64,000 bases of DNA from a virus: positions 32,001 to 96,000 of IMG/VR virus record IMGVR_UViG_3300014656_000017; one strand, given 5' to 3'. Each line of letters opens with the position of its first letter. The stretch's first letter is position 1. Below the pieces are notes generated by a model. The model was not told the origin of the DNA, searched no databases, and saw only the letters and a program-made list of their open reading frames with translations. The translations under genes and the position numbers were made by a program. Below, piece after piece: positions 7,516-60,361 of the stretch.

Positions 7516-8259
7516 TTATTTAACATACGCAGGAATTATATATTTTAATATCCCTGTTTGTTTTTTAATTTCAAACAATATAATTTTATACGAATTGTTA
7601 ATTTTTATTTCAACATCTTCTTTATTATTTGATAACAATCTTAATATTTCTACGCTAAATGGTAGTGGAGTAGTTAATTCTATTCCTTGATAAGTAGGAG
7701 TAATGTTAAATGTAATATTATCTACCTGTTCAATCGCTTTGTCTGTAAGCTCAGCATAGATTACTTTATCTTTCGTAAAGAAATATACCTTATTTGATTC
7801 ATTGGCAAACATACTGCCTTTAAGAATTTCATTAATTTTAGAATTTGTTAAAGAAAATGAAGTATCGTATGTTAATTTGTTAATTTTATTAAGACTTAAT
7901 GTACATTTCTTAATAGCATCATCTAATACTAAATGCAATTTGAAACTTAAATTTGTAGAAGAGTATTTAATTGAACTATTATTGTCACCAATTTCAATTT
8001 CAAATTCGTCCGTTGGAATACATTCAAATACCCTGATAAGTTTTTTAACCCCTTTGATATTTAAACCAATAGAATCAGTATCTGATAATGTGTTATTATC
8101 CATTTGTGTTTCTGCATATAGAACTGTTGGCCCTGGATCAGCTGCAACCAAAGAATTAATAGTATTTTTAGTGACATTAATTGCACAATCATCAACTATT
8201 CTACTAATCGGGTTTAATATTTGATCAATGATTTGTTTTTTATTTATTTTCAGCTTCAC
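7516..8259 (-). CDS. gp45: DNA polymerase sliding clamp
   Basis: 247 aa, two-repeat clamp-like pattern, within the replication block. Confidence 0.65.
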   Translation of the reverse strand: MKLKINKKQIIDQILNPISRIVDDCAINVTKNTINSLVAADPGPTVLYAETQMDNNTLSDTDSIGLNIKGVKKLIRVFECIPTDEFEIEIGDNNSSIKYSSTNLSFKLHLVLDDAIKKCTLSLNKINKLTYDTSFSLTNSKINEILKGSMFANESNKVYFFTKDKVIYAELTDKAIEQVDNITFNITPTYQGIELTTPLPFSVEILRLLSNNKEDVEIKINNSYKIILFEIKKQTGILKYIIPAYVK

Positions 8260-8990: not shown

Positions 8991-9824
8991 TTAACTTAAT
9001 AATCTTCCTGCATTTAATATTGCAACGGCAGTATGACTGTGAATTGATTCTTCATGATTAACAGTTATTACATAATCACTAATATGTTTATCTAACCATT
9101 TATCTAATTCATTTCCCAACTGCCGAACTACATCTTCAACAAACTTTGGATTCTCATACATTAATTCAGTTTGCCATTTTTCATCTTCTCTTTTTAAACC
9201 ATTAATAATAGGTGCAGATGCACATTTAATTATCATATCGTACAAATCTTCAATCCATACTATATCTGCTCCATCATTAATTTTTACTGTAATCTCTGCT
9301 GTGCTGCGCTGATTATGTGCTCCATGTTGTGAAATTTCTTTACTACACGGACAACATGAAGTATACGGAGCCCGAACGGTTATATACATAGAAACTTTAT
9401 CATTTTCCAATTTACCCTCTACAGCTGCATATAATTCAATATGCGATTTAATCTTGCTTACAGGGGCTTCTTGTACTAGATAATAAGGGAAATGTATTTT
9501 AATAAACGCATTTTCTTGTTTCAATTTCTTTTTAGTGGCATGTAAAAGTTCATGAACAAAATCATGTAATACCAAATCCTTATTGATTAGAAATTCTTCA
9601 ATAAGGATTCGGTATCTAGACATATTAGTTCCTTTTTCCCTTTTACTCAAGTCAGTATACATAGAAATATTAGCAGAACAAATATTAATTGTTCCATCTT
9701 TTCTTTGTACCTTTAACGGCACTTTAACTTCACGTATACCCACCTTTTTAATAGGTCTCTCAGGGAACCCAGTTGCTTGATTTTGAATATCTGGCAACTC
9801 ATGTCTATGTTTAATTTCGGGCAT
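8991..9824 (-). CDS. folE2: GTP cyclohydrolase IB (FolE2)
   Basis: LPDIQ, KVGI, KGTNMSR, CPCSKEIS..GAHNQRS, NPKFVED and ESIHSH motifs. Confidence 0.95.
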   Translation of the reverse strand: MPEIKHRHELPDIQNQATGFPERPIKKVGIREVKVPLKVQRKDGTINICSANISMYTDLSKREKGTNMSRYRILIEEFLINKDLVLHDFVHELLHATKKKLKQENAFIKIHFPYYLVQEAPVSKIKSHIELYAAVEGKLENDKVSMYITVRAPYTSCCPCSKEISQHGAHNQRSTAEITVKINDGADIVWIEDLYDMIIKCASAPIINGLKREDEKWQTELMYENPKFVEDVVRQLGNELDKWLDKHISDYVITVNHEESIHSHTAVAILNAGRLLS

Positions 9825-9834
9825 ATTTTATTCC

Positions 9835-10764
9835 TTATAGATTTTCAATATCATCTAATAGTTCTTTTAATTTATCTGAATCAGCAGTTGTTGTTGATTC
9901 ACTTGGTTCGCCTTCAACTGGAACATTAATAGACGGCTCAATGGTTTCATCACCATCTGTAATAGCTACCGTATCCGTACTTTTAGGAGCTGTTAGTTTA
10001 TTGGTAGTTCCTGATTTCTTATTGCTAGATTCGGCAACAATTGTAAAATCTGAAAACAAATGTTCTTGTAGCAATTCCTTCATTTCATCTGCAGACTTAG
10101 GCTCAACAAACTTTGTTAGATCAAAAATACTATCATAAATAGTTTTAATCTTTTGTGGTGTTAGTCCTTCAATTGGTCCTGGTGCAGTAAATCTAGAATT
10201 ATTATAGTTAGCAAATTTTCGTGTACCTTCTACAGTGCTTTCTACCTTAATTTTAAAATTACAACCATTCTCTGTCAAATCAAATACTTTTGATCCGAAT
10301 TCATCTGCATCACCACCCTCAATAGCTTCTGTAATCTTTTCGTGTAATCTTTTACCAAAACGAAGTACTTTAACAGTTCCCTCATTTTCTGAATTAGTAG
10401 GATCTGAAATTACATATACGTTCACCATATGTTTTTCCATACGTCGAATATTATATGCAACTTTCTTATCGTCTTCGTTCTTTGTTTTATACAGTTTAAA
10501 TCTGTTTTCGCAAATGATACACCTTTCATCAAATGTGGTTGGGCAAAAACTATCTACATACTGTCCTGTAGATGTGCTGCTCCACCCATGGTGAAAATAG
10601 TGGAAAAATGTTGCTTTTGGATCTTTGACATTTGGAATCAATCGAACCAAATAAGTATTACCTGGCTCCATCTTCAAAATATCACGATATGCGGACGAAT
10701 TATGCTTTGGATTATCTAACGACTCTTTAATACTATCAAACATACTTGTAATGTCTATATTCAT
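9835..10764 (-). CDS. gp32: Single-stranded DNA-binding protein
   Basis: VRLIP, H...CPTT...CIIC zinc site, DPTNSENEGTVK, FDLTENGCNFKIK, acidic tail. Confidence 0.9.
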   Translation of the reverse strand: MNIDITSMFDSIKESLDNPKHNSSAYRDILKMEPGNTYLVRLIPNVKDPKATFFHYFHHGWSSTSTGQYVDSFCPTTFDERCIICENRFKLYKTKNEDDKKVAYNIRRMEKHMVNVYVISDPTNSENEGTVKVLRFGKRLHEKITEAIEGGDADEFGSKVFDLTENGCNFKIKVESTVEGTRKFANYNNSRFTAPGPIEGLTPQKIKTIYDSIFDLTKFVEPKSADEMKELLQEHLFSDFTIVAESSNKKSGTTNKLTAPKSTDTVAITDGDETIEPSINVPVEGEPSESTTTADSDKLKELLDDIENL

Positions 10765-11439
10765 TTATTTATTTTCCTTTATTATACTTTCTATTTTTTT
10801 AATACCTTCTTTTACTAATATTTTTGCATTTTTTGAATTTATATATTTTGTTTTATATTTTACCCAATCATTCATCAAATCCCCCAAAAATAATTCCTTT
10901 TCATCCTCTGCGATTTTGATAATGATATCATATATTTCAGGGAATTCAACGAGTACATAAAAATTTATTTCATGTCTCTTTAATTGTTTCATCCATTCAT
11001 ATGTTATACCCGTCCTTGTATGTATATACTCTTTCACACTCAGTTTGTGCTTATAGCAAAACTCACCTATTACTTTTAACGATTGTTTAATCATTGTTAG
11101 CTGTTCGGGGGTATCTGGTGGTAGTTCCTGAAGATATTTCATATACATTGCAAACGCTTCAATTCCACCCATTCCCGCATAAAATTTTAAATCTACATAA
11201 TCTTCAGCGGGATGTAAAACAAAAGGGGCTTTAAAATATAACTCTGGATTAATGTGAGGATACTTGCTTAACATATTACTAATTCGTTTTATATTAAGCC
11301 TTTTATCATCTTCTAAATTATCAAAATCCTTGCGATAAGAAAACAATTTGTCGCGACTTTCTCGAGATACCCTTAAATATAAATTATACAATTGTTTTTC
11401 TTTAAAATTTAAATTGATTTTATTTGTGTTGTTGTCCAT
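10765..11439 (-). CDS. Putative helicase loader (gp59-like)
   Basis: 224 aa basic helical protein immediately upstream of gp32, matching T4 59-32 synteny and size. Confidence 0.45.
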   Translation of the reverse strand: MDNNTNKINLNFKEKQLYNLYLRVSRESRDKLFSYRKDFDNLEDDKRLNIKRISNMLSKYPHINPELYFKAPFVLHPAEDYVDLKFYAGMGGIEAFAMYMKYLQELPPDTPEQLTMIKQSLKVIGEFCYKHKLSVKEYIHTRTGITYEWMKQLKRHEINFYVLVEFPEIYDIIIKIAEDEKELFLGDLMNDWVKYKTKYINSKNAKILVKEGIKKIESIIKENK

Positions 11440-11734
11440 TACTGTTTCTTTTAGTTAATGCTATAGTTACTATTTTTGATTTACATAATGTAGGATATCT
11501 TTCAATAAGATTATTAACAAGTTCTTGAAAATTGTCAATGTCTGCTAATTGTAGTGCACAGTTTCTAAATGTAATACTTTGAATTAATGCTATTAATAGT
11601 TTTGCTTGATTAGTTTTTTTATTTTGTAATATAGATAATAAGGATCCAAGTTTTAATACAATCATATCTAGTTCTCGTTCAGCTAAATATTCTGGAGGGG
11701 ATAAATTGGTTTCTTCAATGTACGTAGTTATCAT
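11420..11734 (-). CDS. Hypothetical protein
   Basis: 104 aa ORF, coupled to neighbours. Confidence 0.5.
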   Translation of the reverse strand: MITTYIEETNLSPPEYLAERELDMIVLKLGSLLSILQNKKTNQAKLLIALIQSITFRNCALQLADIDNFQELVNNLIERYPTLCKSKIVTIALTKRNSNGQQHK

Positions 11735-12633
11735 TTTATTTCTTTTAATAATTTAGTAAATTCTAAAAATTTGCCAGTGATCTGTCCGCCAGCTGAATAT
11801 TCATGTCCTGCACCATCTGCTAATTTTTCAGCTAATAAATTTAATTTACATGTTGATTTTTTATTTCTTCTAAAACTAATATGTTGTGTTGAAGTATTAA
11901 CTACTATGGCAATATCTGGATTATATGTAGATAAAATATGATCACTAATATCGTTTACAGGTGAAGATTTATTAACAAATGTTGCTATAATATGATACTT
12001 GGTCCCTGATATAGAAATTTCTTTGTTTTCAAAAAGCTTTATATTTGCAAGAGTTTTATCTAATTGTTGTTTCCATAATTTGTAGATATTTTCTTGTTGT
12101 GCAGTAAAAGCTGTCATGCCTTTATCATACATTTCCATAAATGCTTTAAAGTTATTATGAGTGCTCCAAAATATTGAATTTAATTTTTTTGATTCTGGTA
12201 CAGATAATGTATAAGAATCATAATCATTACCAAGTGCTATTAAAATCTTTTGATTTTTATTCAGTTCTAAATTATATAACTTTTTAAATATTTTATAAGC
12301 AAGCAGACAAGCAGAGGGATATTCTTTAACAATAACAGTAGCTGTTTCATATTTTGCATTATCTACATGAGACTTATGATGATCAATAATAAAAACATTC
12401 GATTTATCAATTAAATCTTTATGATCACTAACGTCTAAATCTAAAATGAATATTTTGTCATAGTCTTCTATTTTATGTTTTAGAAGCCATTTTGTAAAGT
12501 CTATTCTAAATCCAAAACCTGCAATGCTATCATATTCTATATGTGCTTGAGGATGAGCCCATTTAGTCACCAGAGCAGACACCACACCATCTAAATCATT
12601 ATGACTAAATATAAATATACGGGGTATTTTCAT
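11731..12633 (-). CDS. DHH/DHHA1 family phosphoesterase
   Basis: SHNDLDG, ILDL, IIDHH and C-terminal GAGHEYSAGG motifs. Confidence 0.88.
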   Translation of the reverse strand: MKIPRIFIFSHNDLDGVVSALVTKWAHPQAHIEYDSIAGFGFRIDFTKWLLKHKIEDYDKIFILDLDVSDHKDLIDKSNVFIIDHHKSHVDNAKYETATVIVKEYPSACLLAYKIFKKLYNLELNKNQKILIALGNDYDSYTLSVPESKKLNSIFWSTHNNFKAFMEMYDKGMTAFTAQQENIYKLWKQQLDKTLANIKLFENKEISISGTKYHIIATFVNKSSPVNDISDHILSTYNPDIAIVVNTSTQHISFRRNKKSTCKLNLLAEKLADGAGHEYSAGGQITGKFLEFTKLLKEIK

Positions 12634-12671
12634 CTAAAATATTTATTAGTAATATGTTAAAAAATCAACTG

Positions 12672-14024
12672 CTATTTAATATCCAATTTTCCCAATACAC
12701 TATCTAATTCGCCCACTTCTTCAGTAGAAGAAAAGACATCATCTGTTTCACTAATAGTAAGAGTATCATAATCTATTTTGAATGATTGTTTTCCGAAATT
12801 TGGTCCAAATCTACTTTTCATCATTCCAATATTTAAAATTCCCAATTCTTTTTCTGCAGGAGTGCACCATATAGACATCATAGCATCTGCAGTATGAGAA
12901 ATGCCCATACTTTCACCTGTTGATTTAATAGATGGCGATTCTATAGCACCATATCCACTTCTATTTAATTGGAATGCACTGATAATAGGACACGAAAATA
13001 CATAACTTAGTGCTCTTAATTTTTCTGAAATATCTTTACCGTCTTCATATAGTGATCCATCACCTTTAGTGGATTCTAATAAAGTTAAATAATCTATGAT
13101 AATTACATCTGGGCGAAATTTCTTTTTATTCTTTAATTTTTGAATGTATGCTTTAATATGATTAGTTGTAATAGAACTGGGCGGAAATTCTTTAATGATC
13201 AGCTTTGAAGACATATGTTTTTGTGTAAACTCTTTAACAAATCCTCTCAATAAATTTGTTTCTTCTTTAAGTCTGTTTGTTGGGATTTGTGATAATTGAG
13301 TACTGATTCTTTTAGAATATAACAATTCTGACATTTCTAATGATATGATTACTGCATTTAGATCCTGTTCTACTACCTTTCCTGCTGCATTAGCTAATAC
13401 AATAGACTTTCCTATGTTAGTCTCGCCACCAAATAAATATAATGCTCGGCCAGACTGCATCCAGCCTCCTCCAAGCATTTTATTTAACCACTTATATCCT
13501 GTTGGGATAAATTTGTCAACAGTTGTAAGATCTGTTAAATGTTTTTCAATATCTTCAAAATAATCGTGACCTAAATTGTCAACTAAACTTATATTGCATG
13601 CCTTTTCAAACGTTTCTAGTATTTCATTAGTATCAGGGATGGCCTCTTTGTCCGATACTTTATTAACAGTTTCTTTGACTGCATAATATACTGCTTTCTC
13701 TTTAATAAATTGTTCTGTGTTGCGTAAAAGTTCATCTTGATTATATTGTGTGTCTAATGTTTTAAAATGTATCACTACATCTTTGTAAGCTTTTTTAAGA
13801 TCATCATTTATTAATTTAGATTTAATTTCTGTAGCATTAGGTAGAGATGAATGTTCTTTATAAAAGTCAAATATTATTTGAATGTAAGATCGGATATTAT
13901 CGTTTTTAATATATAATGGTTTTAATTCATCAATAATATTAGCTACGTAAATATCATTTAATGTGACATTTAACGCTACAACATATTCAAAAAAATCAGT
14001 ATCTATTTTGCGAGGCTCAGACAT
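12672..14024 (-). CDS. gp41: Replicative DnaB-family helicase
   Basis: GGETNIGKS Walker A, SLEMSE, IIIDYL, QLNRSGY, KSRFG. Confidence 0.93.
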   Translation of the reverse strand: MSEPRKIDTDFFEYVVALNVTLNDIYVANIIDELKPLYIKNDNIRSYIQIIFDFYKEHSSLPNATEIKSKLINDDLKKAYKDVVIHFKTLDTQYNQDELLRNTEQFIKEKAVYYAVKETVNKVSDKEAIPDTNEILETFEKACNISLVDNLGHDYFEDIEKHLTDLTTVDKFIPTGYKWLNKMLGGGWMQSGRALYLFGGETNIGKSIVLANAAGKVVEQDLNAVIISLEMSELLYSKRISTQLSQIPTNRLKEETNLLRGFVKEFTQKHMSSKLIIKEFPPSSITTNHIKAYIQKLKNKKKFRPDVIIIDYLTLLESTKGDGSLYEDGKDISEKLRALSYVFSCPIISAFQLNRSGYGAIESPSIKSTGESMGISHTADAMMSIWCTPAEKELGILNIGMMKSRFGPNFGKQSFKIDYDTLTISETDDVFSSTEEVGELDSVLGKLDIK

Positions 14025-14636
14025 TTATGTAGTTTGTTTATTTAGATTTTCAATTGACTCTACAAGTTTCTGCTGCAACATTTCAATAATCGTATCTTCT
14101 TCTTTTATTCTAACATTATATTCAACTACATTTTTAATAATCTGATCAGCTCTTTCTTTAACAGATCCTGTTACTATAATTGGATTTATTCTATAAGATT
14201 CAATATAGTCGTCATATAATTGTACAATAGCATTTCGATAATCTTGATTCATACTTCGCGAATCATCATCTATTAAGTCAAATTCTGGTTTAATATAAAA
14301 GTGTAAATCATATCTAAGATTTTCAAAAATTGCTTCAGCTATCCGTAAGGTTTCTTGAGTTATTTTTTCTGTTTGATACTGGTGTGTTGCATACACTAAT
14401 GCATCTAAAGAACATCGATCTAATACAGAATTCCTCCATACATAATTTTTTAAATGAACAGCTTCTACCATTAACTGTGCATTATCATCCCCTACATCAT
14501 TAAGTTTAAATCCTAATTCTTGAATACCTCTAATACTTTCAACAAAGGTATAATCTTTCAATTCTGGTCTAGTTCGAAGTTCATTAATTAGTGAAGTTTT
14601 TCCCGTTCCTTGAGCGCCTGAAATAGCTATTCTCAT
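14025..14636 (-). CDS. P-loop nucleotide monophosphate kinase-like protein (AAA_28/NadR-like)
   Basis: ISGAQGTGKTS, LDRCSLD, DDDSR, GSVKER. Confidence 0.8.
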   Translation of the reverse strand: MRIAISGAQGTGKTSLINELRTRPELKDYTFVESIRGIQELGFKLNDVGDDNAQLMVEAVHLKNYVWRNSVLDRCSLDALVYATHQYQTEKITQETLRIAEAIFENLRYDLHFYIKPEFDLIDDDSRSMNQDYRNAIVQLYDDYIESYRINPIIVTGSVKERADQIIKNVVEYNVRIKEEDTIIEMLQQKLVESIENLNKQTT

Positions 14637-15433
14637 ATATTCTCCTTATTATTAAACATTTTACGAAATAATCGTACATTATGCACGGCAGTTTCTATTT
14701 GTTCTAAAGAAAATTGATGTTCAAATAGTTCTACCATTTTAGTTGGATCTTTATCAATCGTCAATGTTGGCCATGAGTATTTAATGCCTAATAATCCTTG
14801 CACTATGGGGTTAGACGTGTCGATCGTATCGAACTTGCGGTATATGTCAGACGTCATAAATTCATTTGGCAACGCTGTTCCAAGCGCATGGTGAGGCTTG
14901 GTAAATCTAAGAATCCCCAATTTCTCCATTTCTGTAAGAAAATAGTGGCGACCTGATGCATATTTTTGCCAAATATTATCACCCGTTCCGTGCACTAAAT
15001 AATAATCTTGAATAAAGTTAATAGCTATTTTGTCTGCTTTGCTGTGCATGAAATTATAACAGACTGTCAAATCTTCAAAATTCTTGCCTTGAACAACACC
15101 AATTTTCTTACCAGGCAGATTACCATAGTTTTCATTCCACTTTTTATAATTTTCAATAGTTTTTTCAGCATCACCAAATACATCAGGAACTATATATTCT
15201 GTTGGTTTTAATTCAAGAATTTTTAATGCAAATAAATCGGAATTAAATGCCTCACCTAATTCAAAGACACTATTATCCAAAATAACTCTACGCCCCATTT
15301 TTAATGAATCTTTAAAGAACTCTGAATATTTTGGATAGTCGTTTAGTAAATGCACCAAACAATAATCATAATCATTAAAGCTTCTAGAAATATCTAAAAG
15401 TTGTAATGGAACTTCGTGGGAGATTTGTGTCAC
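14633..15433 (-). CDS. dpdA: TGT-fold 7-deazaguanine transglycosylase-like protein (DpdA-like, probably DpdA3 type)
   Basis: TIM-barrel TGT-like motifs ILDNS, VPDV, GVVQG, HHALG, DTIDTSNP; folE2, queD and queE are in the same window. Confidence 0.7.
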   Translation of the reverse strand: MTQISHEVPLQLLDISRSFNDYDYCLVHLLNDYPKYSEFFKDSLKMGRRVILDNSVFELGEAFNSDLFALKILELKPTEYIVPDVFGDAEKTIENYKKWNENYGNLPGKKIGVVQGKNFEDLTVCYNFMHSKADKIAINFIQDYYLVHGTGDNIWQKYASGRHYFLTEMEKLGILRFTKPHHALGTALPNEFMTSDIYRKFDTIDTSNPIVQGLLGIKYSWPTLTIDKDPTKMVELFEHQFSLEQIETAVHNVRLFRKMFNNKENI

Positions 15434-16539
15434 TTTTCTTCCTTTATATTATCTACTTCTTTTTTAATTTCTTCAACAGAACTACTAAACACAAACTCTT
15501 TCTTTAATACTTCTTCAAGTTTAGGTATAATAATATTATCCCATACATTTGCATCTTTTTCAAATGCTTTTCTATATCCTAAAGTATTACCATTACATTC
15601 ATAAGTTCTATCGCCTGTAATAACGCCTAGTCCATGAGCCAATTCAAACAACCCAGAGTATTTATCTACCCCTGTTTTAAAATTAAGGTAAATGTCTGTT
15701 GCTAGCATAGGTGGTAAAAATCTATTTTTAGCTGTAAGTGCATGCATTGTTATTCCGCCTACTTTCTTAGCTGCTGATAATATTTCTTCAGATTCAAATT
15801 CCTTTTCGTTCTTTTCTCGTTTAAATCCTAATTGAATAATTAGTGAAGAAAGATAAATTGGCGCTTTTCCTCCAGATTGATTTTTAATTGCAGACGGATA
15901 CATAGCAGCCGGATCATCATATTCATGGTTAGAAAATAGAATAGTGGTTTTAGCCTTAGCAGCTCTATAGGTTAAGGTTCTTAACATGCTTTTAATTTCT
16001 TTAGCTCTCAATCCCATATCTGCTGCTGATTTGTCTTCTTCAGCATCTTTAATTTCTTTACCACTGGCCAAATTACCCAAAGAATCTATAATAATCATAA
16101 ACTTCTTTTGCAGATTCTTTTCAAGGATTTTATTAAGAACCGCTAAAATTTGATTACGGGCACTATTTACAGTATTCACCGGATAGTGCTTAATTTGATC
16201 AGGATTGGCTCCTAAAGATCGTGCTGTAGCCGCATCTAATGCTACTTCTGAATCGAATACAATACCCCATCTTGTCGGATCTTCTTTTTGAAAGTTTCCT
16301 AATATCTTAGTCATAATCAAAGTTTTACCACAACCAGAAGGTCCTGATAATCCAATAATTCTTCCTTGTTGAATTCCTTTGAAACAGGAACCTGAAACAA
16401 TTGCATTCAGGGCATACGATCCTGTGTCCACCCAAGCATCTACAACAGACAATGCATTGTCTGATAAAATTGTGGCATCAGGATTCAGAGCATCCGCATC
16501 TTTAAACACATCATCATATATATTAGTCTTTTTAGCCAT
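15430..16539 (-). CDS. uvsX: RecA-like recombinase
   Basis: DTGSYALN, GPSGCGKT, FDSE, IIDSLG, ADMGLRAK, SGG, KNRF. Confidence 0.93.
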   Translation of the reverse strand: MAKKTNIYDDVFKDADALNPDATILSDNALSVVDAWVDTGSYALNAIVSGSCFKGIQQGRIIGLSGPSGCGKTLIMTKILGNFQKEDPTRWGIVFDSEVALDAATARSLGANPDQIKHYPVNTVNSARNQILAVLNKILEKNLQKKFMIIIDSLGNLASGKEIKDAEEDKSAADMGLRAKEIKSMLRTLTYRAAKAKTTILFSNHEYDDPAAMYPSAIKNQSGGKAPIYLSSLIIQLGFKREKNEKEFESEEILSAAKKVGGITMHALTAKNRFLPPMLATDIYLNFKTGVDKYSGLFELAHGLGVITGDRTYECNGNTLGYRKAFEKDANVWDNIIIPKLEEVLKKEFVFSSSVEEIKKEVDNIKEEK

Positions 16540-17088: not shown

Positions 17089-20000
17089 TCAAACTTTAAA
17101 AAATTCGAACAAATCACACGTATATTCGTTTTTAAAATCAATCAATCTCCATCCAATACTAATAAATCTACTTTCTATTGCTCTAACTATATGCTTTTCA
17201 AACATCTTGTCATAATCAGGCTTAATAACAGATTCAAATTCTTTTGGAAATTTATCAGCGAATGCAATATTCTCAAATCCATACTTATTAGGCATTACAT
17301 ATATCCATTTAATTTTATTTCCAGAGCCAATAAAATCATATACGTTTTCTAATTTTAATGCTTTAATTAAATTGTTATGATTGATAGCTCCTTTAACATG
17401 CACTGGAGTTCCTTTAGCGTGTACTAATCCATTCATTCTGTTGTTATATTTATCAAACCCATTTATATTAGATCGTGATGCAATATCTTCATATGAAAGT
17501 TTTTTAAATTCTTCAAAAATTTGTTTATATACTTCTATTGTTTGTTCACGACTCTTAGTATAAATTATAGTTTCAACTACCTTTTTAATAAGATTTTTGC
17601 ACTCTTTTGAAATAGTGCTTTTAGCTACCTCTACTCCTACATATTTAATTTTATCAGTTGGAAGCGGAGTATCACCTTTACTCTTGTCTTTAATATGCAA
17701 AATGTAATATTTCTTTGCTTCATAAATGCCAGCTGAACATATATATTCTCTTTTAAATACAAATTGAGGATTTAAAGAATTGATAGCATTTTTAGCCCAT
17801 TCAATAATTTGTGTATTTAATACATTATTTAATTTTTTAACAATGTTGAAACTCTGTCTGCTTACTTCTCCTGTTTCGTCTAAAAGAGGAATTTTTAATT
17901 TCTTTAGAATAGGCTCTAAAGTTAGCACTGTGCTGTCCGTGTCATTATAAAATGTTATATTAGAATCTATACCGTATTCTGTTTTTGCAAAATTATCTAA
18001 AATATCATTAGCTGCTTTAATTGTTGCTTGTCCTGTTAAAGTAATACTACCAGAATGATCAATATCTGCTAAGGGAGCATATCTGTTAGCAAAACATCCA
18101 TACAAACTATTTAATATAGTCTTTAAAGTGTTTTGAATAATATCTAATCTGCCTAAAGCGGCAATGTTTTCATTGTATTTATCTGAACCCTTTTTTGTGT
18201 GAGATTGAGAATGATTAATTTTGTCTATCTCTTCCACACTCTTAACTCGTTCATCATAAAGGGATTGTACGAATTCTGGAACTATACCCAGTGTCTTTTG
18301 TGTATATAATACTTTAGCTTTAGATATAGATATTTTTTCTTTTTCTATGAAAGTTTTAAAGTTGTCTTTTGTAAGTGTGTGCATTTTTCCATTTACTAAT
18401 TTTAATTCAACTTCTGTATCAGACATAGATAAAATTTTACCTATTTTTGTCTCTGGTGAAATGTTCAAAGATATAATAGTATTAGGATATAGACTATTAG
18501 CATCGAATACAACAATACTTTCATATAATCCGGGCGTGATATCTCTAACAAATCCGCCGGCATAGGATCCCATTTCTTCATGCTTAAAGGTAGGTATAAT
18601 TTTATTATGTTTTAATGCCTGTTGTGCAATAGCTCCTGTTACTACTGTTACTTTACCTAGAGCAGATTCTAATGCAGCTAATCCTTTATAAGATATTGTT
18701 CTCATTAATTGAAGAAAACGAAGCTTTTGTTCTAATTTTACCAATAGCTCAACATCCCTAACATTATATTCGACAAATTTGTCCCAATTAGTATCAGCTA
18801 ATTTTGTAAGACTTGTAGCACTTACATTAACTTTACCTTCGCCTAATTCTAATTCACTAATATAATCCAAACTATAAGACTCTCTATCTCCTCTTGAAAA
18901 TGTTTTATATGCTTTCCAATAGTCAATACAGCTTATGCCGCCAATATACCACCGGCCTATTTCTTTACCAAATTGTTTTTCTACATTTTCGCGATATCTT
19001 ACTTGGCCTACCGGAGACAATTTATACACCCAATCTTCACCAATAACATTTTCAATTCTATTAATTATATAGGGTATATCAAAGCGTTCGCAATTGTGGG
19101 TCTTGATACCATTACAAATAAAATAATGTGTTTGTGTTTCTATGTCACACATTTCTACATTTTTGCCGGTTTTTTGTATATTTTTAATTTTAACCAACAT
19201 TCCGTTCTCGATTTTAAACCACTTAATTTTATTAGATATTATATTTTTTTTAATGTAATATTTTATATTTTTGAGTTTATTTTTTCTGTCTTGGTGCCAA
19301 ATATTTAAATCAGATATAAATTTTTTATTTTCATTAATAAAAGGAATCCCTGTATTATGCTTTGTTACAGAGGATATAACACCATTCCATAATAATAGTT
19401 GTTGCAAAATATTAATATTTGGAATATCATAACATTTATCATAATTACATACATTTAATTGTGTATCCGCAACATTACCATCACCGTCAATTAAACCGGA
19501 GTAAAATTCAATAAATTGATCATAAGACAACATTGAAATCATCGATATGTTTAATTGTTTTTTGTTTTCTGTATTATATATTAATGGCAATAATACTCCA
19601 AACTTGTTATTGCAAGATACTCTTTTATAAAAATTGTTATCACTTTGTTGTAATCTTGATAAAACTTTAATATTGGAGGGGCAATTTGTATCAATATTGT
19701 TATATATGGACGAATATTTTTCTACTAAATATTGGTGTTGGCTGCTGTACTGATTGGTAAAGGTTTTAAAATCAACACATCCATCTGTAAATGTATATCC
19801 TAAGAATCTTAATATATCACTAGATATAACTTCGTCTAAATTTATGTTTATAAATTTTTGTGTTAACAATATTGTTAATACTGTTTCGTTTTTTAAATAT
19901 TCTAATATCATATCATCAGATATATATTTTTGAAGATTTTTATAATCCCATCCCTTTCTTTTCCAAAATATCTTTCCCTGCCAATATTCTGTTGGTATAT

Positions 20001-21033
20001 TTATTGAATTTTTATATTGTTTTAAATGGTCTCTAATTTGAACGGATTTAATTTTAAAATTAAATCTGGTATAATTTTTTAAGCTGGTCCAGTTATCAAT
20101 AATATAGTTTCTATAATTTAATTGTTTGTTATTATTATCTCTAATAGGTATAAATACATATGAATCTTTGTTTTGTGTATTTATGTCTTTTACTTTAGTA
20201 TCTGTTAGAGTGGATAATAATGTATTTGAATTTTTGTATGCATTTTTGTTTTTAGAACATATCGGAAATATGTGTTCCTTCGAACATAAAATGCTGTGTC
20301 CTAATTCTGTTGTAAGGTTGTATTCTTCTTTAATTCCTGTATCTATATAATTATTTATATTATTTTGGAATTTTTCTGATGTAAAAAGGGGTATATTTTC
20401 ACATTTTTTTGATAAATTTACTATTTTATTAGTGCCCCATAAATATTGGTTTTTGGTGAGACAATACCATCCAGAAACTATATCAGGATAATCCTCTCGC
20501 CAAAATTTAACAAAAGCTCTTAACATTTCAGCTTCTGTTTGAAATTCATAATATTTGTGATCTGAAGCTAAAGATAAGTGTCGATGAGCTAGACCAAACG
20601 TATGATATATTTTAGATAAAGAATCGTATACCGTAATTAAGTTGATTGGATGCGCAGCCTTTTCAGGTTCAGGAAATTCAACAGAGTATGTTTCAATATC
20701 TAGAAAGAAAGTTTTAAGTGGATGTTTAGTAAATTCAGCAGAAGCATTTAATCCATTAAATTTGTCAATTAAATATTGATGTTCTGCTTTAAGATTATAA
20801 AATATTCGTTGAGTTCCGCAACTTTCAACATATCTACGCCTATCAAATTGACTCGGAAATGTTATTTTTCTTAAAGGAGTATTATAAATAGAAACAGCAT
20901 CTTTTTGTGTATTGCTTTCAATATAAATATAGGGATGATAATCCTCAATTTGTTCTATTCTATTGCCGCTTTCATCCCATGTCCACAAATGCATTTTTTG
21001 TGTTTTGGGATTATAAGAAATATTTCTATACAT
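17089..21033 (-). CDS. gp43: Family B DNA polymerase, intein-containing
   Basis: LDIET, FDIPY, FDANSLYP, KTILNSLYG, YNDTDS; ATG at 21033 has SD AAGGAG (the ORF track starts at 21075). Confidence 0.95.
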   Translation of the reverse strand: MYRNISYNPKTQKMHLWTWDESGNRIEQIEDYHPYIYIESNTQKDAVSIYNTPLRKITFPSQFDRRRYVESCGTQRIFYNLKAEHQYLIDKFNGLNASAEFTKHPLKTFFLDIETYSVEFPEPEKAAHPINLITVYDSLSKIYHTFGLAHRHLSLASDHKYYEFQTEAEMLRAFVKFWREDYPDIVSGWYCLTKNQYLWGTNKIVNLSKKCENIPLFTSEKFQNNINNYIDTGIKEEYNLTTELGHSILCSKEHIFPICSKNKNAYKNSNTLLSTLTDTKVKDINTQNKDSYVFIPIRDNNNKQLNYRNYIIDNWTSLKNYTRFNFKIKSVQIRDHLKQYKNSINIPTEYWQGKIFWKRKGWDYKNLQKYISDDMILEYLKNETVLTILLTQKFININLDEVISSDILRFLGYTFTDGCVDFKTFTNQYSSQHQYLVEKYSSIYNNIDTNCPSNIKVLSRLQQSDNNFYKRVSCNNKFGVLLPLIYNTENKKQLNISMISMLSYDQFIEFYSGLIDGDGNVADTQLNVCNYDKCYDIPNINILQQLLLWNGVISSVTKHNTGIPFINENKKFISDLNIWHQDRKNKLKNIKYYIKKNIISNKIKWFKIENGMLVKIKNIQKTGKNVEMCDIETQTHYFICNGIKTHNCERFDIPYIINRIENVIGEDWVYKLSPVGQVRYRENVEKQFGKEIGRWYIGGISCIDYWKAYKTFSRGDRESYSLDYISELELGEGKVNVSATSLTKLADTNWDKFVEYNVRDVELLVKLEQKLRFLQLMRTISYKGLAALESALGKVTVVTGAIAQQALKHNKIIPTFKHEEMGSYAGGFVRDITPGLYESIVVFDANSLYPNTIISLNISPETKIGKILSMSDTEVELKLVNGKMHTLTKDNFKTFIEKEKISISKAKVLYTQKTLGIVPEFVQSLYDERVKSVEEIDKINHSQSHTKKGSDKYNENIAALGRLDIIQNTLKTILNSLYGCFANRYAPLADIDHSGSITLTGQATIKAANDILDNFAKTEYGIDSNITFYNDTDSTVLTLEPILKKLKIPLLDETGEVSRQSFNIVKKLNNVLNTQIIEWAKNAINSLNPQFVFKREYICSAGIYEAKKYYILHIKDKSKGDTPLPTDKIKYVGVEVAKSTISKECKNLIKKVVETIIYTKSREQTIEVYKQIFEEFKKLSYEDIASRSNINGFDKYNNRMNGLVHAKGTPVHVKGAINHNNLIKALKLENVYDFIGSGNKIKWIYVMPNKYGFENIAFADKFPKEFESVIKPDYDKMFEKHIVRAIESRFISIGWRLIDFKNEYTCDLFEFFKV
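19093..20463 (-). mobile_element. Cis intein (457 aa) with LAGLIDADG homing endonuclease in the polymerase exonuclease domain
   Basis: SGWY|CLTKNQ...YFICNGIKTHN|CERFDIPY; FLGYTFTDG and FYSGLIDGDG motifs. Confidence 0.92.
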
Positions 21034-21052
21034 ACTAGCTCCTTTATTGACC

Positions 21053-21073
21053 GTGCGTGTTAAAGATGCGCAC
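21053..21073 (-). promoter_or_regulatory. 5'-UTR hairpin, candidate translational operator of the polymerase gene
   Basis: GUGCG-11 nt-CGCAC stem 8 nt upstream of the SD, in otherwise AT-rich DNA. Confidence 0.45.
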
Positions 21074-21089
21074 ACCCTTATTTTAATTA

Positions 21090-25183: not shown

Positions 25184-25777
25184 TTAGACATATTCAAGCT
25201 CGCAATTGTTTCTAAACTCTTGAAGATTCATTGCATTTACATAACTAAACGCTGATTTTAATCCATGCTCTATCTCACGCAAGATATACTTAGCATGTCC
25301 TTTAAACGGAACCTTCAACATCTCACCCTCTACAAACTCATTCTTTAACCCTGAAGATACTTTATTTTCCATACTAGCTGAACCACCATACATCTTATAG
25401 TATCTTCTATCTACTAAATTAGTTCCTGGTTCTGGATATACATTTCCTGGAGTTTCTGTAGTACCTGCTAGTACAGCACCTACCATAACAGCATCTGCAT
25501 ACTTTAATGCTTTAGCAACATCACCAGAACTTGTAATACCTCCATCAGATATCATTTTAATGGGAAGCCCTTGTCTAACAATTTCATCATAACAAGAATG
25601 TAAGGCTCCTAATTGTGGATGGCCTACACCCGTACGTTGAGTTGTAACACAAACAGAATTATGAACAACCATTCCTTCTGCAATATATGAATGGGGGTCT
25701 CCAACCTCTAGGTCATAAACAGGCCCAGAGTATTTATATTTTTTAATATTAGTAATAGGAACAAGATTAAATTTCAT
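25184..25777 (-). CDS. guaC: Split intein C-part fused to the C-terminal half of an IMPDH/GMP reductase family enzyme
   Basis: MKFNLVP...VYDLEV..HSYIAEGMVVHN|SVCVTTQRTGVG, SDGGI, GDVAKAL, YGGSAS, VEG; SD GGAGG before the ATG at 25777. Confidence 0.88.
   Translation of the reverse strand: MKFNLVPITNIKKYKYSGPVYDLEVGDPHSYIAEGMVVHNSVCVTTQRTGVGHPQLGALHSCYDEIVRQGLPIKMISDGGITSSGDVAKALKYADAVMVGAVLAGTTETPGNVYPEPGTNLVDRRYYKMYGGSASMENKVSSGLKNEFVEGEMLKVPFKGHAKYILREIEHGLKSAFSYVNAMNLQEFRNNCELEYV
25658..25777 (-). mobile_element. Split intein IntC (40 aa)
   Basis: Block F VYDLEV and terminal HN followed by Ser+1. Confidence 0.9.
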
Positions 25778-26928
25778 TTCGCCTCCAAAAAATCTATGCA
25801 TTTCTTAATAATTATATCTTTATTTTTCTTATAGTCAAGTGAAAGAATTCTTAAACATTTAGCGCCAGGCAGCTCCTTTTTAATATTTGTCTCTCTAATT
25901 TTATCTTTTTGTACATCATGCCATTTTGGATCATCATACTCTACCCATTTGTTAAGATCTTTAATATAAAAATCTAATCTATAATACTTCCCGTTTTTCA
26001 GCTCTACTAAAAACTCATTATTTATATGATCGTTTCGTATACCATTATCATTGGTTGCAAAATATATATTTTTATATTTGTGTGATATATTTTTATAAAT
26101 TTCCCAAAAAATCTCTTGTGATATATTAGACCATCCATGAGTTTTTAGTTTTTTAAGTATTTGTTTATTTTTATATCTATAATCTTTCCACCTTTTTGTT
26201 CCATTTATTTTTCCATAAATTCTTATGAATTTTTCTAATGTTTGTGCTTTAGATTTTTTATATTGATTGTATATTTCTGTGCCTTTATGTATACCATATT
26301 TTTCAATATATTTTTCAATAGTATGTTTATTTTTAAGACGATTTTTATATTCTTTTACTTTTATATTTGCTTCCTCTATTGATAATCCTTTCTTAATCCA
26401 ATATTCCGGCAAAAAACAACTCACATATTTGTCAGGATACATTTTTTTATATATTCCGAATTTCAAGCCTGCATTTCTTGAGTTGTCACTTAAAATTTTT
26501 TGTGCTTCGTCTGATGTGTGTCCTCTTTTAATCCAGTATTCTGGACATCTACAACTTCCCGTTCGATACTTTTTCTTATTATTTGTATACCATTTGCGTA
26601 TTTTTGATCCTGCCTCCGCAAGAAACTGGCTTCTTTTATTTTCAATTTCTTCGCCTGTATACCCCTTATCAATCCAATATTCTTTACAATTCTTTAAACA
26701 TTTTCGGTGAATGCAATAATTGCAGTATTTTTTATATCCCAACACTCCATTAATATATTCTGTTGATTTATTACATACCTTACACACACCTTCGTTGGCT
26801 TTTTTAAAATGTGTATCGTAATAGTCCTTAATCTGTTTTTTGTTGAATTTGTGTTTATTAGATAAATGCTTACTGAAATTATACAAATTGCTGCTTTGTT
26901 TTTGACATAAAATACATATAGGTTGCAT
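25774..26928 (-). CDS. Free-standing homing endonuclease (Vsr-like/PD-(D/E)xK) with zinc fingers and repeated DNA-binding motifs
   Basis: C2H2 and CxxC N-terminus, 3x EYWIxxG, 2x EK(Y/F)IxxYG, C-terminal RLDFYIKDLNKWVEYDDPKWH; lies between the split-intein halves. Confidence 0.8.
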   Translation of the reverse strand: MQPICILCQKQSSNLYNFSKHLSNKHKFNKKQIKDYYDTHFKKANEGVCKVCNKSTEYINGVLGYKKYCNYCIHRKCLKNCKEYWIDKGYTGEEIENKRSQFLAEAGSKIRKWYTNNKKKYRTGSCRCPEYWIKRGHTSDEAQKILSDNSRNAGLKFGIYKKMYPDKYVSCFLPEYWIKKGLSIEEANIKVKEYKNRLKNKHTIEKYIEKYGIHKGTEIYNQYKKSKAQTLEKFIRIYGKINGTKRWKDYRYKNKQILKKLKTHGWSNISQEIFWEIYKNISHKYKNIYFATNDNGIRNDHINNEFLVELKNGKYYRLDFYIKDLNKWVEYDDPKWHDVQKDKIRETNIKKELPGAKCLRILSLDYKKNKDIIIKKCIDFLEAK

Positions 26929-26948
26929 ACTTATCCGCCTTCTATATA

Positions 26949-26956
26949 TATTTATG
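26949..26956 (-). promoter_or_regulatory. T4-type late promoter for the homing endonuclease
   Basis: CATAAATA 20 nt upstream of the ATG, same core as at 54464 and 60391. Confidence 0.5.
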
Positions 26957-27847
26957 CTAATTTGCTAATTTTTCTTGAGATTCTATCAAAAAATAATCAG
27001 TTGTTAATTGATCTGCAGGAACCCATTTGGCAAAAAGATGGATATTATCATCTGTAATTTTATTAACATCATTTTTATGAACAACATATATTTTATGATC
27101 ATTAGTGCACTTTAATGAATTGTTAATTTCAACCACTTCTTTACTATTATCAAATTTAAATGTTGTTGTAACTTCTTCGTATTTACCTGTATGAGTTAAT
27201 ACTATTTCACCTGGTTTAATGTCCTGTATTTTTCTTTGTCCTGTAGATGTTGTAATTTTTGTATCAGGTAAAAAACACCCACCCGCTATGCCAACTTTTG
27301 CTACATCAGCACCCCATTCATTTAAATCATAAACAGCTTCCGGTGTACAAACATTACCTGCAATTAAGCATATTTTAGACCTCTCTGATCGAGACCATTT
27401 AAACAATTCGCTTGTAATCCATAGTAACATTTTTTTTGTATGTTCATGATGACCATGAGCTACATCAATACAAAAGATTCGAGCACCAGCGCAATATAAT
27501 TCTGCAAACCTTTCTTTATCTTCTGCTTGTACACCAAGAGAAACACCAATGAGAGGTATATTATAATCATTATCAGGGGTTGTTACCCATCTATAATCAT
27601 CTCTTGCTTGTTGTATAGTATCAAATCTGTGTAAAATACCTAACCCACCAGCGTCCCACATTGTAGTTGCCATTTTAGGACCTGTAATATTTTTCATATT
27701 AGCAGAAATTACAGGAAGTTTTAAAATTACATTATTATGGATCTTGCTGGAAATGTCTACATCATTGCGACTAGCAATAGTGCTATAAACTGGTTTAATA
27801 ACTACATCACTAAAATGCTCTGAGTATTTATTGTTGTTCATATCCAC
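26957..27847 (-). CDS. guaC: N-terminal half of an IMPDH/GMP reductase family enzyme fused to split intein N-part
   Basis: FSDVVIKP, PVISANM, GGLGILHRF, IDVAHGH, AGNV, KVGIAGG|CFLPDTKI; no CBS domains. Confidence 0.88.
   Translation of the reverse strand: MDMNNNKYSEHFSDVVIKPVYSTIASRNDVDISSKIHNNVILKLPVISANMKNITGPKMATTMWDAGGLGILHRFDTIQQARDDYRWVTTPDNDYNIPLIGVSLGVQAEDKERFAELYCAGARIFCIDVAHGHHEHTKKMLLWITSELFKWSRSERSKICLIAGNVCTPEAVYDLNEWGADVAKVGIAGGCFLPDTKITTSTGQRKIQDIKPGEIVLTHTGKYEEVTTTFKFDNSKEVVEINNSLKCTNDHKIYVVHKNDVNKITDDNIHLFAKWVPADQLTTDYFLIESQEKLAN
26960..27277 (-). mobile_element. Split intein IntN (106 aa)
   Basis: Block A CFLPDTKI, block B CTNDHKIY, WVPADQL, then a stop codon. Confidence 0.9.
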
Positions 27848-57930: not shown

Positions 57931-58500
57931 ATGCCGCAGGACAAATGGGTTATAGGAAAACAGTTTGATTTTTGTTACTCACACAGAGTTTGGTCACAAA
58001 AGCTTAATGAAAAATTTAGTTTAGACTCTGGGTGTGCTTGTAGACATTTACATGGACACCAAGGAACTATTATTGTAAAGTTGTCTTCTATTGGATTAAA
58101 AGACGGAATGGTTACAGATTTTAAACACCTCAATTTCTTTAAAAAGTTTGTAGATGATGTCTTAGATCATAAGTTTATTTTAGATATAGAAGATCCTTTG
58201 TTTCATACTTTAGTACCAGAATATAAAGGACAGGATATTCCAATTAAATGGAATGAAGGAAATTGGACAGGTGTATATGGAATTGTTGATCCTAACTTCT
58301 TTAAATTCATCACAGAACCACATATGATTGAATTGTATGAAAGTTTTGTATTTGTAAGATTTGTGCCTACTTCTGAAAACTTGTGCAGGTGGTTCTATGA
58401 TCTTTTAGAAGATAAGATAGAAGAATTAGATGCATATATTGAATCAGTTCAATTTTTTGAAACCCCAAAATCACAATGTACGTTTAGTAAGGATATATAA
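57931..58500 (+). CDS. queD: 6-carboxy-5,6,7,8-tetrahydropterin synthase
   Basis: FCYSHRV, CRHLHGH, LDHKF, PTSEN, ETPK. Confidence 0.93.
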   Translation: MPQDKWVIGKQFDFCYSHRVWSQKLNEKFSLDSGCACRHLHGHQGTIIVKLSSIGLKDGMVTDFKHLNFFKKFVDDVLDHKFILDIEDPLFHTLVPEYKGQDIPIKWNEGNWTGVYGIVDPNFFKFITEPHMIELYESFVFVRFVPTSENLCRWFYDLLEDKIEELDAYIESVQFFETPKSQCTFSKDI

Positions 58501-58713
58501 ATGAAAAAGATAGCACTAGAAGATATTGCGACTGTATTTGTCACTGATTTTGTAAAGATGTTTAAGGAATATTTACAAGGCAGCACTAGTTGGCCGAATA
58601 GGGCATGGGCTAGAAACATTCCTTTTCTTAAAATGAACTATGTTCGAAGACGCGAGCTGATTGACAAATTGCTAAGTAGCCCTAATTACTTTGGAGATAA
58701 AAAATGGTTTTAG
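58501..58713 (+). CDS. Hypothetical protein between queD and queE
   Basis: 70 aa ORF abutting queD and overlapping queE. Confidence 0.5.
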   Translation: MKKIALEDIATVFVTDFVKMFKEYLQGSTSWPNRAWARNIPFLKMNYVRRRELIDKLLSSPNYFGDKKWF

Positions 58714-59447
58714 GAGAAGCACCATTCTATACGATTCAAGGGGAAGGCATGTCTGTGGGTGTTCCTTCTGTGTTTATTAGATTCGCAGGATGCAATTTGC
58801 ATTGTGGATTAAATGGATTATTAGAAGCTGGAGAGGCTTCTTGGAAATGTGATTCTGCTGCCCAATGGAAAAATGGAGTGGAATATACAAATGAACAGCT
58901 TGAACAAAAAATTATAGAATTTGGATGTTTAAAGCAAGTATTAGAAGGGTATGTACATTTAGTATGGACAGGAGGAGAACCTGCTCTACCTCGCGCTTCT
59001 AAAGAGATTGTATCTTTTGTAAAGTATATGGAAAACAAATATCCTGATAGTTTTATTTTTAATGAAATTGAAACTAATGGAACTGTTAAATTTTCTAAAG
59101 AACTAAACGAAGTTATAAATCAAATCAATTGTTCGCCCAAATTAGCTAATTCAGGCATGTCTGAAAGTATGAGAATAGTTCCGGCGGCTCTTAATAATAT
59201 TAAATTGCATACTAATCATTGGTGGAAGTTTGTAGTATCTTCTGAAACAGATATTAAAGAAATTGAAAAAAGTTTTATCATTCCGTATAAGCTAAATTTC
59301 AATAGAATAATTTTAATGCCTGCTGCTTCCAATAGAGTTGAATTACAAGATGTTAGTTTAAATATGGTTGAATGGTGTAAGAAATATGGTTATAGAATGT
59401 GCTCACGATTACAGGTGATTTTATGGGATAAATTGACTGGAGTATAA
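58704..59447 (+). CDS. queE: 7-carboxy-7-deazaguanine synthase (radical SAM)
   Basis: FYTIQGEG, FIRFAGCNLHC...CDS, TGGEP, ETNG, SPKL, RLQV. Confidence 0.92.
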   Translation: MVLGEAPFYTIQGEGMSVGVPSVFIRFAGCNLHCGLNGLLEAGEASWKCDSAAQWKNGVEYTNEQLEQKIIEFGCLKQVLEGYVHLVWTGGEPALPRASKEIVSFVKYMENKYPDSFIFNEIETNGTVKFSKELNEVINQINCSPKLANSGMSESMRIVPAALNNIKLHTNHWWKFVVSSETDIKEIEKSFIIPYKLNFNRIILMPAASNRVELQDVSLNMVEWCKKYGYRMCSRLQVILWDKLTGV

Positions 59448-59671: not shown

Positions 59672-60361
59672 ATGTTGATTAGTGTTTCAGGATGCCAAAA
59701 TATTGGCAAAACCACATTTTGTAAAGACTTTATTAAACAGTGGCCTATGTACACCACTCCCACTGAAAGATATACAAACTTGGTTAAAGAAGGTAAAGTT
59801 AAGTTAAACAAAGAAGGTTCTGAAGAAAGTCAACTAGCTGTGTTAAATCACTTGTGCGATCAAGTCATCAATCAGCCTAAAGATGTTAATGTTATTTTAG
59901 ATCGTGGCGTTTTGGATAATCTAATATACACTTTGCATTTAAATCATAATAAGAAGGTGAGCGATAAGTTTGTTCAGAAGACTATTGATATTGTTAAGAA
60001 TACTTTGATTTTTTATGATTTAATATTTTTCTTGCCTATTACTAAATACTCACCTGTAAATATAGAAGAAGCACCAAATCGAAATATTGATCCTGTTTAT
60101 AGAGATGAAGTTGATGTTTTGTTTAAGGCCCTAATGAATCGGTATGTTAAACATGATATAGTCTATTTTCCTTTTGATCATGAGAAAGGATGCCCAGGAA
60201 TAGTAGAAATTTTTGGGAATAGAGAACAACGAATTCAAGTAGCAAAAATGTATATAGATACAGATGGTCAACTCTATGATGCTTCTAAATCTTTGATTAC
60301 TTCTGAGGATGAAGACCCAGAAACACAAAAAATAGCAGAACAGCTAAAATTAATTAGATAA
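59672..60361 (+). CDS. P-loop nucleotide monophosphate kinase-like protein (paralog of 14025-14636)
   Basis: VSGCQNIGKTT, LDRGVLD, YDLIF, GNREQR. Confidence 0.8.
   Translation: MLISVSGCQNIGKTTFCKDFIKQWPMYTTPTERYTNLVKEGKVKLNKEGSEESQLAVLNHLCDQVINQPKDVNVILDRGVLDNLIYTLHLNHNKKVSDKFVQKTIDIVKNTLIFYDLIFFLPITKYSPVNIEEAPNRNIDPVYRDEVDVLFKALMNRYVKHDIVYFPFDHEKGCPGIVEIFGNREQRIQVAKMYIDTDGQLYDASKSLITSEDEDPETQKIAEQLKLIR

Follow-up and report, generated by a model that had tools for sequence, protein, structure and literature searches.

Among the 7-deazaguanine phages, only those with 7-deazaguanine transglycosylases of the DpdA3 subfamily (phiST, CP220 and immuto among the published ones) replace every G. 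The replacement amounts to 100 % of G, DpdA3 by itself was found to be inactive in Escherichia coli, and the nucleoside of 7-amido-7-deazaguanine (ADG) was observed in the infected cells' cytoplasm (PMC10516641). The route to full G replacement is unsettled, because DpdA3 has never been reconstituted. The bacterial DpdA/DpdB/DpdC system and the phage enzymes DpdA1 and DpdA2 (e.g., of phage 9g) likewise belong to the tRNA-guanine transglycosylase (TGT) superfamily and use bases of the 7-cyano-7-deazaguanine (preQ0) type from the same precursor pathway, but differ in that they act on DNA after replication, modify 0.1–30 % of G and are larger proteins (317 amino acids (aa) in 9g DpdA1). The present analysis concerns a window of 64 kb (bases 32001–96000, G+C content ~30 %) of the IMG/VR virus record IMGVR_UViG_3300014656_000017 (110,908 bp), which very probably encodes a system of the DpdA3 type by which an uncultured T4-like phage modifies its genome with a 7-deazaguanine. 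Systems of this kind are already known; new is the link between DpdA3 and a kinase. With the published DpdA3 phages the window shares an orthologous DpdA3, the supply route FolE/QueD/QueE(/QueC) and, in common with CP220 and immuto, a kinase adjacent to DpdA3. It differs from them in four ways: FolE2 takes the place of FolE; the modification genes occupy four separate sites of the record, dpdA3 and the kinase gene being part of the uvsX-gp41 operon of the replisome; a second kinase paralog lies beside queE; and, compared with related loci, QueC is present, whereas QueF and DpdN were not found in the available half of the genome. According to CheckV, the whole record is ~49 % complete, and absences from it are therefore weak evidence. 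A megablast search with the region yielded no match among 50,697 deposited phage records, the set to which the homolog counts for deposited phages given below also refer.

The transglycosylase is encoded at 14633–15433 on the minus strand by an open reading frame (ORF) of 266 aa, which has no match in Pfam or NCBIfam; a profile of its family likewise gave none against PDB sequences. Its assignment as a minimal TGT barrel draws on fold and homology. The alignment-based AlphaFold2 model (predicted local distance difference test score 94.9) forms a barrel, and tRNA-guanine transglycosylases account for all of its best 50 Foldseek matches in the PDB (E about 1e-9). With VIA-align, the model superposes on bacterial TGT and on the catalytic domain of archaeosine TGT with Z 17.1 and a root-mean-square deviation of 3.1–3.5 Å over 229–239 residues. 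Among the viral models of BFVD, the second-best match is CGPG_00065 of phiST (M4SLA5; E 9e-18, template modelling score 0.86/0.88), the protein with which the DpdA3 subfamily was founded (PMC10516641; Cui, Hutinet et al. 2023). Identities determined by tblastn are 44 % to gp056 of CP220 and 40 % to the annotated DpdA (gp206) of Flavobacterium phage immuto, and the protein matches phrog_19058 at 1e-58. By homology and structure, the TGT-fold protein is a member of the published DpdA3 subfamily. A preliminary description of the window, made from the sequence alone, had taken it to be DpdA-like; the failure to model as a TGT barrel that was envisaged there did not occur.

In 55 homologs, residues D53 (in LDNS), D84, G112, G116 and D205 (in DTSNP) are invariant, and Q115 (in GVVQG, between G112 and G116) is nearly so. 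We take the motifs with D53, D84, Q115 and D205 to resemble those around D102, D156, Q203 and D280 of TGT, where D102 and D280 are the catalytic aspartates. Since the protein stops ~60 residues after D205 and contains two cysteines only, it is regarded as devoid of the zinc subdomain of TGT. A TGT fold would also be expected of an enzyme that modifies tRNA (queuosine or archaeosine type) and tunes translation instead of altering DNA. Such a role is very improbable for the present protein: the missing subdomain is the one that binds tRNA, the gene is embedded among replication genes, and close family members occur in phages for which complete modification of the DNA has been demonstrated by experiment. 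Metagenomes contain a very large number of family members, with 2598 word-search matches and 501 clusters at 50 % identity with E <= 1e-30. The family's profile similarity to bacterial DpdA and phage DpdA1/DpdA2 is not significant beyond the LDSG/LDNS motif. Net charge was rejected as a sign of DNA binding, as it does not discriminate: the DpdA3 family is acidic (median isoelectric point 5.36), and the DNA-acting DpdA1 of 9g is equally so (5.64). Long forms among the 150 best DpdA3 representatives are fusions with DpdN, homing-endonuclease remnants or DUF3310. Two natural fusions of 447 aa (P0163, P0169) combine DpdA3 (residues 1–268) with a DpdN formyltransferase (residues about 271–444).

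DpdA3 is encoded within a T4-type replication block on the minus strand, extending from 21 kb down to 7.5 kb, which also holds FolE2 and a kinase-like protein, K1. The stop codon of uvsX (recombinase, 15430–16539, minus strand) overlaps the start codon of dpdA3 (GTGA), the stop codon of dpdA3 overlaps the start codon of K1 (14025–14636, minus strand; ATGA, preceded by the ribosome-binding site AAGGAG), and the gene for the gp41-like DnaB helicase (12672–14024, minus strand) starts directly after the stop codon of K1 (TAAATG). Because start and stop codons overlap or abut at these junctions, uvsX, dpdA3, K1 and gp41 are considered to be translationally coupled. The genes named in the preliminary description (folE2 by gp32, the TGT-fold and kinase genes between uvsX and gp41, a DHH gene after gp41, and queD and queE 43 kb away) are all real and located as described there.

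K1 (203 aa) is a nucleoside/nucleotide-kinase-like P-loop protein of the AAA_28 family (2e-17; phrog_2107), 32 % identical to the kinases gp057 of CP220 and gp203 of immuto, the genes of which follow that of DpdA3 in these phages. A profile of 30 kinase sequences retrieved from the PDB the ribosylnicotinamide kinase domain of NadR (1.3e-6), deoxynucleoside kinase (7e-6), thymidylate kinase (8e-6) and deoxyguanosine kinase (5e-4); other matches were mostly short and confined to the P-loop. Invariant or nearly invariant in the family are the Walker A motif GxxGxGK[TS], N46, Q54, D73-R74, D78, Y82, R127 and R162, of which R74, R127 and R162 are invariant and D73 nearly so. This pattern, which includes the Walker A loop, a DR motif and LID arginine, is typical of acceptor-binding kinases of the fold group formed by the NadR ribosylnicotinamide kinase domain, deoxynucleoside kinases and thymidylate kinase; the acceptor could be a nucleoside or a monophosphate.

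The association of the two genes was followed in 80 IMG/VR loci picked by similarity to DpdA3. A homolog of the kinase is present in 78 of them (kinase hidden Markov model (HMM) E-values 1e-39 to 1e-69, except for three ORFs truncated by a contig end or frameshift), and one of the two loci without it offers just 210 bp of downstream sequence. All 78 homologs are located on the same strand as DpdA3 and all but one downstream of it, at 0–1.5 kb. Overlapping or abutting genes were observed in ~45 loci, and in ~25 others a single small gene, encoding the DpdN formyltransferase, lies between the two. If DpdA3 is clustered at 90, 70 or 60 % identity, the kinase is retained in 44 of 46, 19 of 20 and 15 of 15 clusters, respectively. 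In the opposite direction, DpdA3 was found within 4 kb in 76 loci of a separate set of 80, picked by similarity to the kinase; three of the four exceptions have less than 400 bp upstream before the contig ends, and 76 of the 77 loci with enough sequence hold DpdA3. The pairing is far beyond chance. It was not found in the searchable literature, and the words "kinase" and "ATPase" are absent from the text of PMC10516641.

The 80 DpdA3 loci stem mostly from related T4-like phages, in which synteny may reflect descent. K1 could accordingly be a general deoxynucleoside monophosphate kinase, the counterpart of gp1 of T4, that stands beside dpdA3 because the gene order was inherited and not because of a specific functional link. 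The position of a second AAA_28 paralog of CP220 (gp006-gp007 region) between a topoisomerase gene and dUTPase, a general nucleotide-metabolism context, would agree with this. The explanation is nevertheless an unlikely one, as start and stop codons overlap in most loci and the deposited set includes thousands of other T4-like phages that lack K1 homologs. Such homologs occur in 110 of the 50,697 records, i.e., 17 Campylobacter phages, 4 Flavobacterium phages and a distant clade of 89 Streptomyces phages, and none of the QueC-carrying phages of Vibrio, Escherichia, Pseudomonas and other hosts is among the matches. The first 50 kb of phage 9g (56.7-kb genome), which has DpdA1 and is partly modified, yielded neither K1-type nor AAA_18-type kinases. 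The pair furthermore persists in phage groups that are unrelated, where its neighbours differ and either gene order occurs. Outside the T4-like group, Campylobacter phage CC_R7 has QueC, DpdA3 (28 % identical) and the kinase followed by DNA polymerase, and in Bacillus phage BSTP12 a kinase-like P-loop protein (gene 039; hhalign E 3e-5) and a DpdA3-like protein (gene 038; hhalign probability 98.5 %) are followed by DNA polymerase I.

A different kinase family holds the position in another clade, which also argues against mere gene order: in phiST and Chryseobacterium phage MA9V-3, a P-loop kinase (AAA_18/AAA_33) is encoded directly upstream of DpdA3. These two kinases share 32 % identity (E 1e-18); a relation to K1 is not found by hhalign. 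The phiST protein, CGPG_00066, has been said to have no homologs in other phages with a 7-deazaguanine pathway (PMC10516641).

Some annotations in these phages deserve mention. CGPG_00066 is an AAA_18 P-loop kinase-like protein (L090:4520-4999) with its MA9V-3 homolog at L087:5507-5977. Gene 038 of BSTP12 is annotated as "NadR trifunctional protein", but really encodes a DpdA3-like TGT barrel with a weak DUF6610 match, the kinase-like protein being that of the upstream gene 039 (L091:3381-4729). In Streptomyces phage Karimac, taken to represent the clade of 89 Streptomyces phages, the gene for a distant AAA_28 kinase overlaps its upstream neighbour, which encodes an FkbM-type methyltransferase (genes 95-96; L089:5210-6621), with MazG nearby and no DpdA3. 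Gene 95 was considered as a hidden DpdA3 and dismissed on account of its FkbM methyltransferase domain and an hhalign probability of 0.1; the Karimac pair may represent a different nucleotide-level modification module.

The second kinase of the window, K2 (59672–60361, plus strand), is encoded directly after queD-queE. It belongs to AAA_28 (5.5e-8), shows a weak match to deoxynucleoside kinases, is 25 % identical to K1 (E 4e-10) and is recognized by the kinase HMM at 1e-45. Two AAA_28 paralogs are also present in the Campylobacter phages CP220 and CC_R7, mirroring the K1/K2 pair of the window (L174:3908-4911; W03:6557-7078).

The supply of the modified base starts with FolE2 (GTP cyclohydrolase IB), which catalyzes the first step of 7-deazaguanine synthesis and is encoded next to gp32 at 8991–9824 on the minus strand. 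It matches PF02649 over its full length (3e-71) and the equivalog model NF010200 with 237.3 bits (cutoff 215), and no FolE of type IA was found in the 110.9-kb record. The preliminary description had rightly regarded FolE2 as unusual for phage clusters: among the 80 DpdA3 loci, FolE type IA is present in 20 and FolE2 in 3, all three of which have the same gene order as the window, and homologs of FolE2 were detected in only 3 of the 50,697 deposited phage records. No mention of FolE2 in a phage deazaguanine cluster was found in the literature searched. The use of FolE2 instead of FolE is a rare variant, by which the pathway can be built on a zinc-independent cyclohydrolase.

QueD (6-carboxytetrahydropterin synthase; 57931–58500) and a QueE-like radical S-adenosylmethionine enzyme, the synthase of 7-carboxy-7-deazaguanine (CDG; 58704–59447), are encoded on the plus strand, 43 kb from the dpdA3 block. 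QueD is the sole match to PTPS (6e-27) in the 110.9-kb record, which contains no second PTPS protein that could represent DpdL, and its motif C-R-H-L-H-G-H is of the QueD type (CxxxHGH), not of the DpdL type (LxxxHRHxF), as the two are defined in PMC10516641. The QueE-like protein has Fer4_12 and Radical_SAM matches, and five NCBIfam models for QueE recognize it at 1e-11 to 4e-18, each below its equivalog cutoff. Neither queC nor queF is present in the 64-kb window, as noted in the preliminary description, but a search of the whole record revealed QueC at record coordinates 99701–100510, 3.7 kb beyond the window end (PF06508, 2.6e-45; TIGR00364, 127 bits, under the cutoff of 150). It is not a Gat-QueC, because the GATase domain is absent. 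Apart from queC, this search yielded no queF, gat-queC, DpdL or DpdN-type formyltransferase (Formyl_trans_N) in the half of the genome that is available. QueF is encoded in 70 and DpdN in 37 of the 80 DpdA3 loci, and the usual gene order in metagenomic loci is FolE, DpdA3, (DpdN), kinase, QueF.

The presence of FolE2, QueD, QueE, QueC and DpdA3 in one record corroborates the proposed 7-deazaguanine DNA-modification system. Replacement of G by a CDG-derived base, as put forward in the preliminary description, holds with regard to the 7-deazaguanine nature of the base, but not with regard to CDG itself, since QueC points to preQ0 or ADG. From the gene content, the expected base would be one of these two or a derivative, preQ0 (the product of QueC proper) and ADG (that of the variant QueC*) not being distinguishable because QueC scores below the equivalog cutoff. 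If additional enzymes are encoded in the missing half of the genome, the base may be derivatized further. A DUF366 protein (PF04017, 6.6e-21) is encoded ~0.8 kb past QueC (record coordinates 101297–101899, plus strand); homologs of it occur in 0 of the 80 DpdA3 loci.

Taken together, these components would allow the modified base to be made before replication. FolE2, QueD, QueE and QueC would, by homology, convert GTP to preQ0 or ADG. DpdA3 would replace guanine by the 7-deazaguanine while the deoxyguanosine is still a free nucleotide or nucleoside and not yet part of finished DNA, and the co-translated K1, possibly together with its paralog K2, would phosphorylate the product towards the deoxynucleoside triphosphate (dNTP). 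The gp43 polymerase of the phage would then incorporate the modified base, resulting in full G replacement. For this pre-replicative scheme as a whole, the chances are considered even. It is proposed with more reserve, as a tentative idea whose chances fall a little below even, that DpdA3 is the first TGT-superfamily enzyme to exchange the base of deoxyguanosine in its free form, as nucleotide or nucleoside, in a pre-replicative pathway with an obligate kinase.

Pathways of this type have precedents. In the hydroxymethylcytosine pathway of T4, the dCTPase gp56, the dCMP hydroxymethylase gp42 and the deoxynucleoside monophosphate kinase gp1 act together, and in the Z-genome (2-aminoadenine) phages purine replacement is likewise pre-replicative (PurZ/MazZ/DatZ), with MazG-type and HD-type hydrolases shaping the pool. 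The T4 pathway has in common with the proposed one that modification at the monophosphate and a dedicated kinase lead to complete replacement via the polymerase; it differs in its unrelated enzymes; the modifying step in the window would be a TGT-fold base exchange, and no dGTPase was identified in the record. The likeness to the Z-genome phages lies in the neighbourhood of DpdA3. Each of the four cultured lineages examined has, near DpdA3, a gene of the type encoding nucleoside triphosphate (NTP) hydrolases: phiST has MazG, immuto the MazG-like PRA-PH (with a phosphoribosyltransferase also near), CP220 a fusion of an HD domain with an AAA_33 kinase, and MA9V-3 a DCD-like protein of the dCTP-deaminase/dUTPase fold. 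Chemistry and enzymes are otherwise different from those of the Z-genome phages.

The pre-replicative route is favoured, first, because DpdA3 and a small-molecule kinase are coupled specifically and almost without exception, whichever of the two is taken as the starting point, and because K1 gives way to an unrelated kinase family in one clade; the relatives of K1 among nucleoside and nucleotide kinases favour a nucleotide-level route without proving it. It is favoured, moreover, by the recurrence of NTP hydrolases as neighbours, parallel to the T4 and Z-genome pathways, by the loss of the zinc subdomain from DpdA3, and by the published findings of 100 % modification, inactivity of DpdA3 alone and ADG nucleoside in infected cells. 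The preliminary description had already read the coupling to a kinase as a hint at exchange on the nucleotide level. The coupling has turned out to be tight and specific and the fold to be that of nucleoside/nucleotide kinases; the level of exchange is what we infer from them.

Several points weigh against the pre-replicative route. To our knowledge, a polynucleotide is the substrate of every characterised enzyme of the TGT superfamily, bacterial DpdA and phage DpdA1/2 included. MazG and HD proteins, the candidates for removal of dGTP, are both missing from the 110.9-kb record, about half of the genome. Fusions of DpdA3 with the kinase were not found among the 150 best representatives, in 160 loci or in a search of longer proteins with the kinase alignment, all of them weak negatives. 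The substrate assignment of K1 is a prediction derived from profile similarity to a fold group. Finally, post-replicative insertion has been proposed for every DpdA subfamily (PMC10516641; Cui et al. 2023).

In this published mechanism, DpdA3 would swap guanine on replicated DNA, and the kinase-like protein would be an accessory, perhaps an ATP-using partner comparable to the DpdB of bacterial DpdA, perhaps a protein for the supply or salvage of guanine nucleotides for FolE2. An operon among replisome genes would suit an enzyme working at the fork, and a missing partner would equally explain the failure of DpdA3 alone in E. coli. The partner, however, has the fold and motifs of a nucleoside/nucleotide kinase and not those of a DNA-dependent ATPase or of the ParB-like DpdB, and its replacement by another small kinase family, the absence of the zinc subdomain and the NTP pyrophosphohydrolases recurring beside DpdA3 fit poorly with such a mechanism. 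Replacing every G after replication would also be demanding. Overall, exchange on replicated DNA is regarded as the main rival explanation for the DpdA3 phages, quite possible but less likely than the pre-replicative route. The natural DpdA3-DpdN fusions fit either model.

The kinase association provides a concrete and testable alternative to the published post-replicative model, and the kinase is probably the component missing from the failed reconstitutions in E. coli. If the pre-replicative route is true, the fully substituted genomes of CP220, phiST, immuto and many uncultured T4-like phages would be made by the polymerase and not by post-replicative swapping, and a new enzymatic route to 7-deaza-dNTPs would be at hand. 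The mechanism would extend to many environmental T4-like phages because of the size of the DpdA3 family in metagenomes.

Downstream of gp41, a DHH/DHHA1 phosphoesterase is encoded at 11731–12633 on the minus strand (DHH 7e-10, DHHA1 1e-3; phrog_4771). The preliminary description had suggested that it sanitises the dGTP pool. This is not supported, and on conservation the protein was rejected as a component of the system, since a homolog accompanies DpdA3 in 1 of the 80 loci, and we know of no dGTPase of the DHH family. The protein is probably a replisome or nuclease accessory outside the modification system.

The minus-strand replication block further comprises the sliding clamp (7516–8259), gp32 (9835–10764), two small ORFs of no assigned function between gp32 and the DHH/DHHA1 gene, an ORF of 133 aa between UvsX and the polymerase, and the family B DNA polymerase itself (17089–21075, minus strand), a gp43-type protein of 1328 aa. 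The polymerase bears an intein, with the splicing region at about residues 233–661.

Two further genes of the phage are noted. A TPM-domain phosphatase (PF04536, 1.8e-45) with a C-terminal hydrophobic/low-complexity tail is encoded in the same phage record (L006:10363-11175, plus strand). An intein-split gene of the IMP dehydrogenase/GMP reductase family without a CBS domain occupies 25184–27847 of the window on the minus strand; it consists of an N part with a Hint domain (26957–27847), an ORF of 384 aa and a C part with the C-terminal region of the intein (25184–25801). NCBIfam does not decide between IMP dehydrogenase and GMP reductase, either of which would be expected to act on the pool of guanine nucleotides, a source for the deazaguanine pathway or a competitor of it.

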